This document shows positions 52,466 to 59,757 of a stretch of DNA of 59,757 nt, piece after piece. Source of the DNA: Chloroflexota bacterium. Lineage in GTDB: Bacteria; Chloroflexota; UBA5177. Each line of letters starts with the position of its first letter. Positions within the stretch are counted from its first letter, which is position 1. The stretch covers positions 1 through 59,757 of the forward strand of contig JANWJD010000057.1 in assembly GCA_025449555.1 (NCBI GenBank), read 5' to 3'. The position numbers were made by a program, and so were the translations under genes. The notes under the pieces were generated by a model that saw nothing but the letters and a program-made list of their open reading frames with translations, made no database searches and had not been told where the DNA came from.

Positions 52466-52600
52466 ACGACCTCCTTCAGAGTGTAGCCACCGACCGTCGC
52501 CGGTGACTTCGAACGTCGGTTGGCATTGCGACTTCGCAGGCACAGTGTAGACATCTATACTGACTGTCGGACGCAGTACGCGCCCGGAAAGGCATGTGCG

Positions 52601-54187
52601 ATGTTTGTGCCTCTGACGCCACTCTCGTTCAAACAGCGTGCCGTTCGGTTGTACGGTAGCAAGCCATGTTCGGTTGATGGGGAGCGTCGCTTCACCTACA
52701 CCGACTTCGATCTTCGCACGCGCCGCCTGGCCGCCCGCCTGCGCGCCGCCGGCCTGCAGCCAGGCGAGCGCGTGGCATATCTGGCGTACAACTCGGAGGA
52801 ACTGCTCGAAGGATACTACGGCGTGCTGGAGGCGGGCGGGGTCTTGTTGCCGCTCAACGTCCGGCTGACTCCTCATGAACTGGCGTACATCCTGGACGAC
52901 GCAGGAGTCTCATTTGTCCTGGTCGATCCGGATTTTGTAAGCATCTACGAAAGTATCGACCGGCTGATGAACCTTCGCCCGACCGTGATCTGGCTTGGCG
53001 CCACGCCCGAGGCAAGAGATGAACCGGCGTACGAGCAGTGGATTGGTGCAATCGATCCAGCCGAGGTCGACGTGGCTGCGATCGACGAGAACGCCCTGGC
53101 GGAACTGTTTTACACCAGCGGCACCACGGCGCGGCCCAAGGGTGTGATGCTGACGCATCGCAGCCTCTATTTACCTGCGTTGAATGTGCTCACGACCTTT
53201 CCTGCCGACGACAGCGAGGTGCAGCTCCACACAATCCCGCTCTTCCACGTGAACGGGTGGGGCGTGCCGCAATTACTGACTGCGGTGGGAGGGAGCCATG
53301 TGATGATGCGTAAGTTCGACCCCGTGGCAGCCCTGCAGCTCATTCAACAGGAGCACGTCACGCGTTTCTACGCCGTCCCGACGATGATGACGATTCTTCT
53401 CAACCACCCACGGATTCACGAGACCGATCTCAGCAGCATGCGTTTCATCAAAATAGGCGGGGCGCCCGCTCCGGCGGAGATGATCAGCCGGGCCGAAGCT
53501 GCGTTTGGATGCAGGGTGATTGCAGGGTACGGGCTCTCCGAGACCTCACCGGTCATCACGCTGGCAGTGCCGAAAGCCTCGTTGGCCGGGGAGGACGACG
53601 AGACACGGTATCGACGCCAGGCCTCGACCGGTCTGCCGTTGGTAGGCGTGGAACTCGACATCGTCGATGACCGGGGCAATCCGCTTCCCTGGGACGGTTC
53701 CAGCGAAGGCGAGATCGTGGTCCGAAGCAATGTGGTCATGGAAGGCTATTGGAACGACTCTGACGCCACCCAGCGCGCCATGTGGGACGGTTGGTTTCAT
53801 ACCGGCGACGTTGCCACGATCGATCCAGAGGGCTACGTGCTGATCGTCGACCGCAAGAAAGACATCATCATCAGCGGCGGAGAAAATATTTCCTCGGTCG
53901 AGATCGAGAAGACGCTCTACGAATGTCCGCAGGTGCTGGAAAGCGCAGTCATCGCCGTGCCGGACGAGCAGTGGGGTGAAGTGCCGTTGGCCCTGGTCAC
54001 GGTGCGCCCCGGCGCTAGTGTCACATCCGAGGAACTCGCATCGTTTTGCCGCGATCGTCTCGCCTCCTTTAAGGTGCCCAAAGCCTTCGAGTTTGTGGAC
54101 GAGCTCCCCAAAGGGGGGACCGGCAAGATACTGAAAGCCCGCCTGCGAGAGCACTACTGGCAATCGATGGCGAAGCGAGTGAACTAG
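52601..54187 (+). CDS. Long-chain fatty-acid--CoA ligase family protein
   Basis: FYTSGTT..PKG, PLFHVNGW, YGLSET, GWFHTGD, DRKKDIIISGGENI, PKGGTGKI; ATG 52601 after GAAAGG. Confidence 0.92.
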   Translation: MFVPLTPLSFKQRAVRLYGSKPCSVDGERRFTYTDFDLRTRRLAARLRAAGLQPGERVAYLAYNSEELLEGYYGVLEAGGVLLPLNVRLTPHELAYILDDAGVSFVLVDPDFVSIYESIDRLMNLRPTVIWLGATPEARDEPAYEQWIGAIDPAEVDVAAIDENALAELFYTSGTTARPKGVMLTHRSLYLPALNVLTTFPADDSEVQLHTIPLFHVNGWGVPQLLTAVGGSHVMMRKFDPVAALQLIQQEHVTRFYAVPTMMTILLNHPRIHETDLSSMRFIKIGGAPAPAEMISRAEAAFGCRVIAGYGLSETSPVITLAVPKASLAGEDDETRYRRQASTGLPLVGVELDIVDDRGNPLPWDGSSEGEIVVRSNVVMEGYWNDSDATQRAMWDGWFHTGDVATIDPEGYVLIVDRKKDIIISGGENISSVEIEKTLYECPQVLESAVIAVPDEQWGEVPLALVTVRPGASVTSEELASFCRDRLASFKVPKAFEFVDELPKGGTGKILKARLREHYWQSMAKRVN

Positions 54188-54217
54188 TGGGTCACTTGGC
54201 TCGATCATGGCCATTGG
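54184..54217 (-). repeat. Isolated IS630-type terminal sequence (3'-end remnant)
   Basis: Reads CCAATGGCCATGATCGAGCCAAGTGACCCACTAG on the minus strand; encodes NGHDRAK*, like C-termini of this transposase group. Confidence 0.7.
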
Positions 54218-54236
54218 AAACTTGCTCGAAGAAGCG

Positions 54237-54701
54237 CTAAGTTTCGGGGGCCGCTGGCACCGGGATCATGTCGAAGCGCGCAGCCAGTGCGGTCCGTTCC
54301 TCGCTGGTTCCATTCCGAGCAGCCAGGTGCAGCGTTTCCTCGATATAGCGCTCGAAGCCGGCGGGATGATGCACGACCAGGATGGTCGCACGCTCACTGC
54401 TCGCGTTGTGAAAGGCGTGGATCGTCTCACGTGGGACAAAGGCGAAGGCGCCCGCGCCGGCGATATGACACTCCTCGCCGATGCGCAACACCACCTCACC
54501 TTCGAGGACGTAGAAGAATTCGTCGCGCCCGTGATGATAGTGAGGCCCTGCACCCACCATCCCTGGATCCATTCGTCCTTCCCAGATGCTGTACAGGTCG
54601 CCGGTCTCTGTTTCTGACGCCTTGACCGTGATGCCCGCGCCGGTGGAGCTGCCCGCAATCAACCGTCCTTCGCCTGGAGCTACGATGACCGCTTTCATCA
54701 C
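54237..54701 (-). CDS. Cupin-domain protein
   Basis: PHYHHGRDEFFYVLEG and G....VPRETIHAF.N cupin motifs; GAGGAGG SD. Confidence 0.88.
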   Translation of the reverse strand: MMKAVIVAPGEGRLIAGSSTGAGITVKASETETGDLYSIWEGRMDPGMVGAGPHYHHGRDEFFYVLEGEVVLRIGEECHIAGAGAFAFVPRETIHAFHNASSERATILVVHHPAGFERYIEETLHLAARNGTSEERTALAARFDMIPVPAAPET

Positions 54702-54824
54702 TCATGTTCCTCCTCATCCGCGTGATGAGATAACCGCTGCACGGTATGGGCCGTTTCCTGGCCTGGTACGCCCAATCCGAAACGATTGGTGTCGTGAGCG
54801 GGATGGCTCAACACCCCTATCGCG

Positions 54825-55217
54825 CTATTCAAGGTCGTCCCGCATCTTCGAGAGATCGGCTGCGATCCGCCGTCTGATGGCCCGAACCGCCATGCCGGTC
54901 ATGGGGTCGAGGCGGCTGTGCCCCAGGCCCTCAATCGATGCCGCCACCTGCGCACCGCCCGGCACCTCGTACACGGTGTAGCAAACACCGACCTGCCGCC
55001 CCCAGGAAAGGTTCACCACTTCCAGGGTCGGGTCCGACTCGGCAGTCTGGCCCTCCTTGCCAGGAGTCGCGGAGCGCAGGTGCGCGACGACGGTGGCGAG
55101 GGGCTGATTGATGACCGCGATCACATCGCGAACCGGCGTGGGGTGCGACACCTGAGAGAGGGCACCGGAGACCCCGACCCGCGCGAGAAGGTGAGTAGTG
55201 GCTGTGGACGCTGTCAT
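54825..55217 (-). CDS. Hypothetical protein, possibly SRPBCC-like
   Basis: 130 aa, AAAGGA SD; beta-rich core and C-terminal helix RRRIAADLSKMRDDLE. The family guess is weak. Confidence 0.55.
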   Translation of the reverse strand: MTASTATTHLLARVGVSGALSQVSHPTPVRDVIAVINQPLATVVAHLRSATPGKEGQTAESDPTLEVVNLSWGRQVGVCYTVYEVPGGAQVAASIEGLGHSRLDPMTGMAVRAIRRRIAADLSKMRDDLE

Positions 55218-55270
55218 GGTCTCATATCCTTTCGTCGTGCAGGTCGAGGCCCGGTGGCAAAGTTGGAGCG

Positions 55271-55319
55271 GATCTCACAGGAGGTGAGGGCCTCGTGAGC
55301 GGTCGCCTCCTGTGACATC
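55271..55319. terminator. Long inverted repeat downstream of the second cupin gene
   Basis: TCACAGGAGGTGA ... TCGCCTCCTGTGA, 13-bp stem with one G-U pair. Confidence 0.5.
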
Positions 55320-55320
55320 G

Positions 55321-55800
55321 TCACGCGCTCGGAGGGGGAGCGGGCGTAAGGCCATGGCGGCGCATGATCGCCATCGCCTTGGCGCGGTCAGGTGGGCCGC
55401 CGGCTGCGGCGTTGATCACTTCGGCCGACTCGCGGAAGAACTCTGGACCAATCGCTGCGGGACTGATGACGACCAGCGCCTTCGCATCCTCGCTGCCGTG
55501 GTTGGCAAATCCGTGCACCGCACCGCGAAGAATACAGAGCGCCTGCCCGGCACCCACCTCGATCGAGTCCCCCTCGACCGTCCAGGTGAGCATGCCCTCC
55601 CGGCCGTAGATCGTCTCTTCATAGGCATCGTGGCTGTGCGGCGGTGCCAGAAGCTTCTCGCCGGCCGGCACGGTCATCTCAAACACCGCAACACTCCCGT
55701 TCGAATCGGCACCGGTCACCAGGAACCGAAGCTGCAACGCTCCGACGCGAATCACCTCTGCGCTCGGATTTACCTGGGAGGTCGTGATCTGCTGTACCAT
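55321..55800 (-). CDS. Cupin-domain protein
   Basis: PPHSHDAYEETIY..EG and G.....RGAVHGF.N cupin motifs; AAGGAG SD. Confidence 0.88.
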   Translation of the reverse strand: MVQQITTSQVNPSAEVIRVGALQLRFLVTGADSNGSVAVFEMTVPAGEKLLAPPHSHDAYEETIYGREGMLTWTVEGDSIEVGAGQALCILRGAVHGFANHGSEDAKALVVISPAAIGPEFFRESAEVINAAAGGPPDRAKAMAIMRRHGLTPAPPPSA

Positions 55801-55815
55801 GGCGGGCTCCTTCTG

Positions 55816-55845
55816 GTAAACTAAATTTACTACAACATAGTAAAT
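55816..55845. promoter_or_regulatory. Candidate MarR operator in the divergent cupin/marR intergenic region
   Basis: ATTTACTA-caaca-TAGTAAAT (55825-55845) overlapping GTAAA-ctaaa-TTTAC (55816-55830). Confidence 0.65.
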
Positions 55846-55858
55846 GAGATGTACTCAG

Positions 55859-56317
55859 ATGTCAACCCCCGAATTTGGCCATCCCACAAATACGATGCTC
55901 ATTGGTGCGCTGCTCCGGTATCCGGCGCGGGCGGTCCAGCGCCGCCTCATCCAGGGACTCAACCACGCCGGCTTCGACGACCTGCGTTTTCCCCATATGG
56001 CGGTCCTGCAATATCCCGGTCCTGATGGCGTGCGCCCCACCGTCCTGGCGGAGCGGGCGGGTATGAGCAAGCAGGCGATGAACCAGCTGCTCATGAGCTT
56101 GGAGCGTCTCGGGTATATCACACGGGAGAACGCGCCGGGAGGGGGGCGAGCGCGCATCGTGCGGCTCACCCAGCGTGGTCACGCCGTCGGGGAACGGATG
56201 GTGGAACTGCTGGTTGAGGTGGAGGATGAGTGGCGCGAGGTATTGGGGGAGCAGCGATTCGCTGCGCTGAAGGAGATCCTGCTGGACGTGTGGGAGTCCC
56301 CGCTCGTGCGCTTATAA
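55859..56317 (+). CDS. MarR-family transcriptional regulator
   Basis: LAERAGMSKQAMNQLL.SLE..GYI.R...GG.RARIV.LT.RG winged HTH. Confidence 0.9.
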   Translation: MSTPEFGHPTNTMLIGALLRYPARAVQRRLIQGLNHAGFDDLRFPHMAVLQYPGPDGVRPTVLAERAGMSKQAMNQLLMSLERLGYITRENAPGGGRARIVRLTQRGHAVGERMVELLVEVEDEWREVLGEQRFAALKEILLDVWESPLVRL

Positions 56318-56464
56318 TGCCGGTCCAACCGGGAGACGGTGGCAGTCTGGAGCCAAATGCAGGGGACCGCCCGCATCGTGCTGCCCTTCGGTGATCACCA
56401 AGACAGACTGATGGACGTAGGCTGGAGGCAGGTATTCGCCGTCTCGCCTCTCCCAGAGTTCGCC

Positions 56465-57759
56465 ATGGCCGCTCATTAGGACGATCCCTTGCGTCCCCTT
56501 ACGTCCGATGAACGCCGGTATCTGGAGCGCGTCAGCTGCTCCCGTACTGACCCCGCTGCCCAGGTCGCGCGAGCCAAGGAACTCGTGGCGGTCGCGGATG
56601 GCGCAAGCTTCGAGGGAGCGGCACGCCTCGCTGGCCGCAAGAGCGGAGATGCTGTCGCCCACTTGGTCGCACGGTTCAACCGGGACGGGATTGACGTGCT
56701 GGTCGAGCGGCATGGTGGTGGCCAGCCCAAGCGCTACACGCACCGCGAACAGGAGCGGATTCTGTGCGAGGTGCGCCTCGAGCCGGATCGGGAGACGGAT
56801 AGGACGGCCAGTTGGTCGCTGTCGACGCTGCAGGCTGCGCTGCGTCGCGCTCTGGACGGCTTGCCGGGGGTCAGCACGTACACCATTTGGTGCGTCCTGC
56901 ATGATGCCGGGTTCACCTGTGACCGGGATAGCAGCTGGTGTGAGACCGGGACCGTGGTGCGCAAACGGAAGAGCCGCACCGTCACGGTCATCGACCCCGA
57001 TGCCACAGCGAAATAAACCCAATCGAGGCGGTGTATGCCCAGTCCCTCCTACCGATCTGGACGGAAGACGAGGCGGGGCCGTATCAGACCCTTCCCTATC
57101 ATGGGTCGCACTGGAATCCCGCTGGCCATCCCATCCGCTATCCCCACGAGTATGTGCGCAACGGGACCGCCAAACAGCTGACGCTCTTCCATCCCGCCAG
57201 TGGTGCGGTGCGCGTCAAAGGGGTGCGGAATGCTCAGAATGTGATTCTCCATCCCTGGCTGCAGGAGGAACTGACCGCCATTCTTGCGACTCTTCCCGAA
57301 CCGGAGCTGCTCCCAGCAGAGGAGAATCGCCGCTGCTGGACGCGGTGGCAGGAGGGGTTAACCGTCCGCATCACGTTGCCCCAGGAACTGCCTCCCTTGC
57401 GGATGCTGCTCGTCTGGGACAACCTGACCGGGCATCACACGCCTGCCTTCATCCTCTGGCTCTTCGCCCACGGGATCATGCCCCTCTTTACTCCGCTGAG
57501 CGGATCCTGGCTCAATATGTGCGAATCAGTCCAGCGCATCCTGAAGCACCGGGCATTGGATGGGGCACATCCCAAGACGCCTGAGCAGATCATCGCCTGG
57601 CTGGAGGCAACGGCGCGGGGGTGGAACCGGGAGCCGACGCCGTTTGTCTGGGGAGGACAGCGGCACACTCATTCTCAGCGAGCACGCGAGCGACGCCATG
57701 CCCTTGGCGGGTCAGGCGGCTACACGCGGCAGCCGCTCCGGCGACGACGGGGAGCGTGA
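56465..57759 (+). pseudogene. IS630-family transposase, two-frame (-1 frameshift) type, inactivated
   Basis: HTH ORF A and DDE ORF B (EDEAG, WDNL, LNMCE) in the -1 frame; in-frame TAG at codon 5 (56477-56479); TAA inside the A-run at the frame junction (57014-57016). Confidence 0.85.
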
Positions 57760-57760
57760 C

Positions 57761-57790
57761 CGAATGGCTATGCCCAAGACAACTGGTCCA

Positions 57791-57794
<4 letters not shown>
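57761..57794 (+). repeat. IS630 right terminal sequence
   Basis: CGAATGGCTATGCCCAAGACAACTGGTCCACTAG, immediately after the transposase. Confidence 0.7.
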
Positions 57795-59680
<1,886 letters not shown>

Positions 59681-59757
59681 TCCATGAGACTCCGTCGCAG
59701 CACCTGCGCCATCCCTGGTGGCTGTTCCGGCGCGCCAAGAGGGGTCAGGGGTGCGCG

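Follow-up and report, generated by a model that had tools for sequence, protein, structure and literature searches.

A probable IS630-family transporter insertion sequence, now inactive, in a Chloroflexota genome

We analyzed a 59.7-kb stretch of Chloroflexota DNA (the window), which is the whole of contig C57 from an 84%-complete assembly of 293 contigs (G000), and focus here on a 3.6-kb segment (54185-57793) in which passenger genes and an IS630-family transposase gene lie within one pair of terminal repeats, the structure of a transporter insertion sequence (tIS). We propose, with a probability of roughly two in three, that this segment represents an IS630-family mobile insertion cassette (MIC) fused to an IS630-family insertion sequence (IS), thus forming a tIS that, in this genome, is no longer active. 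Read from left to right, the locus comprises an acyl-CoA synthetase gene (acs), a 34-nt repeat, a cupin gene (cupin1), a gene for a 130-aa protein, a second cupin gene (cupin2), marR, a 74-nt tail, a transposase gene in two frames, a further 34-nt repeat and a uvrA-like gene (Table 1). In the comparisons below, G001 and G002 are genomes of the same genus and G005 is one of another genus; L-numbers designate loci, many of them on metagenome contigs.

Outer ends, fusion junction and transposase lesions

Both outer ends of the unit are genuine IS630-family terminal repeats placed on a TA within CTAG. In inverted orientation, 54184-54217 and 57761-57794 agree at 25/34 ungapped positions and both terminate in CCACTAG, just as an initial annotation of this DNA had reported. 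When the entire window was scored ungapped over 34 nt against the reverse complement of the right end, a single position, the left arm, reached at least 22/34; among 200 shuffles of the 10 kb upstream none reached 25, the best being 23, attained one time. The arms 54181-54215 and 57763-57797 (35 nt, 74% complementary) also form the longest inverted repeat within 53900-58100. As natural pairs of left and right ends in this IS family are only ~65-75% identical, the agreement of 25/34 is within the normal range. The unit runs from GTGG to CCAC between two TA dinucleotides, each in CTAG, and the full-length relatives have the same termini. Further, the left arm begins with TAGTGGGTCACTTG, the exact terminus of the full-length IS630-family copies G001:C1 and L076, with variants of it in G001:C3 and L089.

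The initial annotation had the cassette caught between two IS right ends. That IS630-family ends bound it is borne out, whereas the handedness of the left one is less clear: it matches a right-end fragment on contig C147, where the 3' end of a transposase gene follows, at 29/31 positions by BLAST and 29/34 ungapped, the right end of G008:C26 at ~30/34 by eye, and the left ends of G001:C1 and L076 at 26/34. These scores mildly favor a "right"-type end without being decisive, the left and right ends of the family being too alike to separate reliably. The peptide NGHDRAK*, formerly taken for the last part of a transposase gene, is an arithmetically correct translation, but it corresponds to repeat sequence past the position of the transposase stop rather than to a coding remnant. 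In this family the stop sits just inside the 34-nt repeat (G008:C26 reads ...RRRAA* and then GNGYDRDK*), and no transposase-coding sequence follows the left-end repeat in any of the five lineages that carry the cassette. Elsewhere in the same genome, a search with the ends, as formerly suggested, recovers two solo IS630 right-end fragments of ~100 nt (C147:7954-8050 and C221:12611-12727), each consisting of the repeat and ~60-85 nt of transposase 3' end without a transposase, and no further transposase copy.

The point of fusion between cassette and IS is preserved in the window. Directly after the common tail, which ends in ...CCCTTCGG, the window reads TGATCACCAAGACAGACTGATGGACGTAG (56392-56420); with two 1-nt gaps, this stretch aligns to the intact right ends of the cassettes in L101 (..CAATGCAACTGACCCACTA) and G005 as well as to the right end of the window unit (GCCCAAGACAACTGGTCCACTAG), and it runs directly into IS sequence equivalent to position ~37-44 of the full-length copies. 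These alignments identify it as the cassette's own right repeat in a degenerate state. On a metagenome contig from an independent run (L100; SRR7275280), the cassette-IS junction is identical letter for letter to that of the window; because both have the same junction, the fusion predates their divergence. Codon 5 of the L100 transposase (CAG) and its A7 run are both intact, and the fusion exists there with a transposase that is plausibly active, the window copy being a decayed descendant. An exact look-up of the L100 OrfA returned no further copies. The window cassette is also a mosaic: its right part (55321-57544; cupin2, marR and the IS) is closest to L100 and G005, with 90-92% identity to L100, while cupin1 and the 130-aa gene (54237-55217) are 81-96% identical to L078 and L031 but only 69-74% to L100.

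The assignment of the transposase to the IS630 family follows from its combination of HTH and DDE_3 domains; the NCBIfam IS630 model gives 53.5 bits, below its cut-off of 100. Full-length copies of the family measure ~1.4 kb, abut TA, and in all cases encode an OrfA of 183 aa in frame 0 and an OrfB of ~241 aa in frame -1 that overlap at an A-run (GAAAAAAAG in G001:C1 and G001:C3; CAAAAAAAC in G008:C26). Frameshifting or slippage is documented for IS630, including one of Roseiflexus, another member of the Chloroflexota (PMC5009743). We considered the change of frame between OrfA and OrfB as a pseudogene lesion and rejected it, as the same -1 layout with an A-run is found in every family copy.

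Judged against these copies, it is the A-run, not the change of frame, that is defective in the window: the A7 slippage run reads GAAATAAAC (57010-57018), a break that creates the OrfA stop codon. In addition, codon 5 of OrfA is a TAG nonsense codon (56477-79) where L100 and the relatives have CAG. With this nonsense codon and the loss of the slippage run, the window encodes no intact, expressible transposase and the element is a fossil in this genome. Neither is the IS complete, in that ~40 nt of its left end are absent relative to G001:C1, G001:C3 and L076. The full-length relatives have a left repeat with TAGTGGGTCACTTG... 40-46 nt ahead of a conserved GTAGGCT motif, a place at which the window carries different sequence; this agrees with the earlier report, which saw no left terminus preceding the transposase. 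The inactivity of the transposase had gone unnoticed in that report, and its suggestion that intact copies elsewhere could mobilize the unit in trans is unsupported, there being no intact transposase in the 84%-complete assembly. At another locus, L076:3150-3200, the inner right terminus of an IS beside marR is degenerate (CGAGTGTGAACC in place of CTAGTGG...) and its A-run is broken (CAACTAAAC), a second case of a cassette-associated IS with a decayed inner end and transposase.

Recurrence of the cassette and alternative explanations

The junction of left repeat, spacer and cupin1 recurs in five diverged lineages, namely the window, L031, L078-80, G005 and L089. The left flank differs in each, and homology to the window breaks exactly at the terminal TA (between TA and G). 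In the window this flank is the stop codon of acs. Beyond the left repeat there is another IS630 right-end remnant in L031 (95.6% identity to the window), a HicB-like gene in L078-80 (82%), and a complete divergent IS630 with perfect repeats in L089 (77%), with one TA shared between the neighboring elements in both L031 and L089. In G005 (contig C183), the equivalent of 54186-56392 (78%) lies between CAGTGGGTCGCTTG... at its left and ...CAACTGACCCAGTAG at its right boundary, lacks a transposase, and is flanked by genes unrelated to those in the window: a FAD oxidoreductase gene on the left and a DUF488 gene. L101 (83%), on a contig that ends before the left end, provides a second transposase-less right end (...CAACTGACCCACTA); there, as in G005, the short right repeat comes straight after CCCTTCGG. 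Having a pair of flanking IS-type repeats but lacking a transposase, the G005 and L101 forms conform to the definition of a MIC; the window copy carries a transposase gene and is a MIC-IS fusion instead. The cassette occurs in 3/12 genera of the order and is absent from both same-genus genomes, G001 and G002. In soil metagenomes, marR-cupin2-cupin1 operons that lack both the 130-aa gene and any IS ends are widespread (among them L084, L098 and L103); the cassette is thus a captured form of an ordinary operon. A plasmid collection yielded only distant IS630 relatives (~65% identity) and a distant cupin2-marR match.

Based on these observations, we advance the following mechanism. One component would be the MIC, consisting of the left repeat, the operon that encodes two cupins and, between them, the 130-aa SRPBCC-like protein, the divergent marR and the right repeat. 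The other would be an IS630-family IS whose transposase is made from two frames, OrfA (HTH) and OrfB (DDE), joined by slippage at the A-run. At their junction, the right repeat of the cassette would have been degraded or lost along with the first ~40 nt of the IS, which hold its left repeat. Such a junction might have formed by insertion of the IS into the CTAG regenerated at the end of the cassette, with later deletion of the abutted ends, or by insertion of the cassette into a TA ~41-42 nt inside an IS. Since only the two outer termini are good, we infer that a cognate transposase would move all 3.6 kb by cut and paste into TA, preferably within CTAG. The first route finds a parallel in L031 (Ga0066662_10543121; ...GACCCAATAGTGGGAC...) and L089 (Ga0466952_0014314; ...GACCCACTAGTGGGTC...), where IS630-family ends abut end to end via a single shared TA; this suggests that the CTAG regenerated at the end of an element attracts further insertions. 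Likewise, the mosaic cassette of the window, together with the arrangements in L076/L078 and L089, indicates that these elements meet and recombine. More tentatively, and with somewhat less than even confidence, we see here a family of IS630-derived cassettes of soil Chloroflexota, bearing a MarR-controlled cupin/SRPBCC-like operon, that pile up end to end at regenerated CTAG sites, become welded to an IS by loss of inner ends, and recombine with each other.

Several observations weigh against the proposal that the unit is a MIC-IS fusion that moved as a whole. The comparison for an empty site that had been suggested earlier found none in 41 relatives, and none of these has acs beside the uvrA-like gene; consequently, a single en bloc insertion is unproven, and the two ends could reflect separate events or a rearrangement. 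The own assembly contains neither a second copy of the unit nor another transposase gene of the IS630 kind. L100 stops short of both outer ends, and the 3.6-kb unit was not seen at a second site. Looking for the same cassette with the same ends at other loci, as formerly suggested, thus gives the left repeat-cupin1 junction in five lineages and not the full unit with both outer ends. The apparent duplication of TA is uninformative, as TA adjoins every IS630 end. In L076/L078 and L089 the IS adjoins marR in the opposite orientation, from which it follows, for L076 and L089, that the association between cassette and IS630 is recurrent and partly independent. Moreover, metagenome contigs may be chimeric where repeats occur. 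For the L076/L078 element, with flanks ...GAGCCATC and GAGCAGCC... at its insertion TA, an empty site was likewise not found: 9/9 contigs with the HicB-like gene are >99% identical to the element-bearing L078 (seven compared directly), and the 202-aa flank protein is not on record.

The two outer ends also invite comparison with a composite transposon, in which two inverted IS630 copies would once have flanked chromosomal cupin and marR genes, with the left copy subsequently deleted to its last ~35 bp. This would accord with the proximity of the left end to the proven right ends of C147 and G008:C26 (29/34 and ~30/34, versus 26/34 for left ends) and with L089, where the cassette sits between two IS630-family copies. 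However, the left IS of L089 is a complete, separate and divergent element that merely abuts the cassette via a shared TA, the similarity of left and right ends in the family precludes their reliable distinction, and behind the 34-nt repeat none of the five lineages has a transposase-coding remnant. Further, the cassettes of G005 and L101 are transposase-less units with a short repeat on either side, a degenerate right repeat of the cassette survives in the window (56392-56420), and in place of two complete IS copies around the cargo there is only a 34-nt repeat on the left and no second transposase in the genome. We therefore regard this history as unlikely; of the initial designation of the unit as composite or transporter-IS-like, the latter part holds, with a transposase gene inside, and the notion of two IS copies with one mostly deleted does not.

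Alternatively, a solo IS630 end from an old event and an unrelated, decayed, 5'-truncated IS might happen to bracket ordinary chromosomal genes that never moved together. This genome does contain solo right-end fragments (C147:7954 and C221:12611), marR-cupin2-cupin1 is widespread without IS ends in the soil metagenome loci cited above, and no empty site was found. Yet a homologous repeat-cupin1 junction in five lineages with unrelated flanks, an identical cassette-IS junction in L100 and the absence of the cassette from the same-genus genomes make such a coincidence quite improbable. A different possibility accepts the fusion but explains its present flanks by a recombination or deletion event that involved IS630 ends at two loci, in place of a single insertion into a shared CTAG. 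In its favor, G002 (G002:C59, L009) runs colinear with the window as far as the acs stop and thereafter matches contig C56 of the G000 assembly from 1603 (gatD-like), the acs and gatD-like amidotransferase genes of G002 converging with overlapping stop codons (TTAG). Because contigs C57 and C56 join via a split uvrA-like gene, ~7.2 kb (the element plus a block of uvrA-like, VOC and AraC genes) would lie in G000 between these two genes, which are adjacent in G002. The uvrA-like block also has a G+C content of 0.68 as against 0.60 in the left flank. Against this, the other breakpoint (C56:~1602) shows no IS630 end, and gene order differs among all three genomes of the genus, such that the ancestral order cannot be told; we consider a rearrangement of this kind about as improbable as mere coincidence, though a live alternative.

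Relation to known cargo-carrying elements

In general terms, the MIC-IS fusion that we favor belongs to a kind of element that is already known, the cargo-carrying IS or mobile insertion cassette, and adds a further example to it. One such MIC is the IS231-derived MIC231 of Bacillus cereus. As defined in PMC3129680, the term fits the G005 and L101 forms exactly, these having IS-type inverted repeats around passengers and no transposase, so that their movement would need a transposase in trans. The differences lie in the repeats, which are here of the IS630 family with its TA/CTAG target, in the fusion of the window copy to a transposase gene, and in mobility that we deduce from sequence. The tIS, an ISfinder concept mentioned in the same paper (PMC3129680), is an IS with passenger genes between its terminal repeats. 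The window unit resembles it in having a transposase gene and unrelated passengers within one terminal repeat pair and no second IS copy, and differs in that its cargo is itself a repeat-bounded cassette with a degenerate inner end, the left repeat of the IS is lost and the transposase is inactive.

Within the IS630/Tc1/mariner family, the element shares with IS630 and ISY100 an HTH plus DDE transposase, imperfect repeats, ends that abut TA, and CTAG at both ends in the window. Targeting of TA and CTAG by IS630 is documented (PMC2170065), the preference for CTAG being attributed there to Tenzen and Ohtsubo (1991). ISY100 is encoded by a single ORF, whereas the family in the window needs a -1 shift on an A-run to join OrfA and OrfB, like the IS630 of Roseiflexus (PMC5009743). 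The unit also exceeds full-length copies of its own IS lineage in size, at 3.6 kb with four passenger genes versus ~1.4 kb. As far as the IS630-associated composite transposon is described in the citation of Tenzen and Ohtsubo (1991), IS630 ends there likewise mobilize intervening DNA into the TA of CTAG, but two complete IS630 copies are involved, in contrast to the lone 34-nt repeat on the left here.

Cargo-carrying derivatives of cut-and-paste ISs blur the boundary between IS and transposon and are seldom annotated. The loci compared here provide a natural IS630 series, with the stand-alone IS, the transposase-less cassette, abutted elements, a fusion whose transposase is intact (L100) and one that has decayed (the window). 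This series suggests how IS630 elements might acquire genes and, if the reading is right, would constitute a natural cargo route for IS630/Tc1/mariner-type elements. The practical value is modest: better annotation of Chloroflexota genomes, and ends and a transposase that lend themselves to testing.

Genomic neighborhood and cargo genes

Table 1. Positions of the unit, its parts and its flanking genes in the window
Feature	Position	Strand	Remarks
acs (acyl-CoA synthetase)	52520-54187	+	TAG stop (54185-87) inside left CTAG
Left CTAG	54184-54187	.	TA at 54185-86 is the presumed target dinucleotide
Left terminal inverted repeat of cassette, TAGTGGGTCACTTGGCTCGATCATGGCCATTGG	54185-54218	+	outer left end of the 3.6-kb unit
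Cupin 1 (cargo gene 1), 154 aa	54237-54701	-	single domain; Pfam Cupin_2, E 7e-18
130-aa protein (cargo gene 2)	54825-55217	-	no Pfam or NCBIfam match
Cupin 2 (cargo gene 3), 159 aa	55321-55800	-	single domain; Pfam Cupin_2, E 2e-14
AT-rich operator-like motif, GGTAAACT..TTTAC..N..TAGTAAAT	55815-55845	.	overlapping GTAAA/TTTAC palindromes; cupin2/marR intergenic
MarR-family regulator (cargo gene 4)	55844-56317	+	Pfam MarR_2; divergent from cupin 2
Non-coding cassette tail, 74 nt	56318-56391	+	common to G005, L101 (both transposase-less) and L100
Degenerate inner right repeat of cassette, TGATCACCAAGACAGACTGATGGACGTAG	56392-56420	+	fusion point with IS
IS630-family IS body, without ~40 nt of left end	56421-57759	+	by comparison with G001:C1, G001:C3, G008:C26, L076, L089 and L100
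OrfA (HTH)	56465-57016	+	Pfam HTH_32, E 7e-10
OrfB (DDE), -1 frame	57013/57031-57759	+	Pfam DDE_3, E 5e-7, 30 bits vs 28.6 cut-off
Right terminal inverted repeat of IS, reverse complement TAGTGGACCAGTTGTCTTGGGCATAGCCATTCGG	57760-57793	-	outer right end of the unit
uvrA-like gene	57791-59680	-	converges on unit; stop (57791-93) within right CTAG
Right CTAG	57791-57794	.	TA at 57792-93 is the presumed duplicated target

Joined across a single TA, the flanks of the element would read ...GTGAAC (acs), TA, GGTCTCG... (uvrA-like gene). An element that starts on G and finishes on C restores TAG on both strands, so that its insertion into a CTAG common to two converging genes would spare both stop codons; a single insertion of this kind is an attractive, if unproven, reading of the locus. 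The uvrA-like product ends in AYVGNGNET*, four residues longer than its closest orthologs (AYVGG*, AYVGT* and AYVSA*); the codon at which translation originally stopped is GGA in the window (57795-57812), and termination now falls on the TAG at the IS junction. The gene itself is split: the end of C57 holds the part matching UvrA model positions 275-924, and the N-terminal part (C56:1-607, ending ...GGMCPRC) opens contig C56. In the split region (59640-59757), the two contigs have ~20 nt in common and then C57 diverges over its last ~92 nt, which looks like an assembly branch or else an insertion or population variant inside the gene. The block of uvrA-like, VOC and AraC genes is also present in G001 and G014, located elsewhere; in G001 an RNase H-like gene neighbors the uvrA-like gene.

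Turning to the cargo, the relatives of cupin 2 include RemF and the C-terminal cupin of quercetin 2,3-dioxygenase (YxaG; PDB 1y3t/2h0v, E 5e-7). The start of marR is probably at 55859, which gives a product of 152 aa, the length of its homologs, with a weak likeness to HpaR. The operator-like motif is kept in 8 related loci with spacers that vary. The 130-aa protein belongs to a small family, with 11 homologous clusters in 5.8 billion proteins. All the Foldseek matches listed for its structural model (pLDDT 64.5) are weak, the best being to the TcmN aromatase/cyclase (E 3e-3), and the majority of those listed, the best one included, are of the SRPBCC/START/Bet v1 type (e.g., PR-10 and PYL), such that the predicted fold weakly resembles this class. 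Taken together, the cargo is probably an operon derepressed through MarR that acts on an aromatic, phenolic or flavonoid-like compound. The 130-aa protein alone found no match in a scan of the genome collection, while the alignment of its family found only G005 and G006, both Chloroflexota assemblies. In G006:C208 (L027) and L088, we observed a variant of the cassette in which a VOC/glyoxalase gene replaces cupin1 and an IS5-type transposase gene (DUF4096/DDE_Tnp_1) adjoins it, with no IS630 ends.

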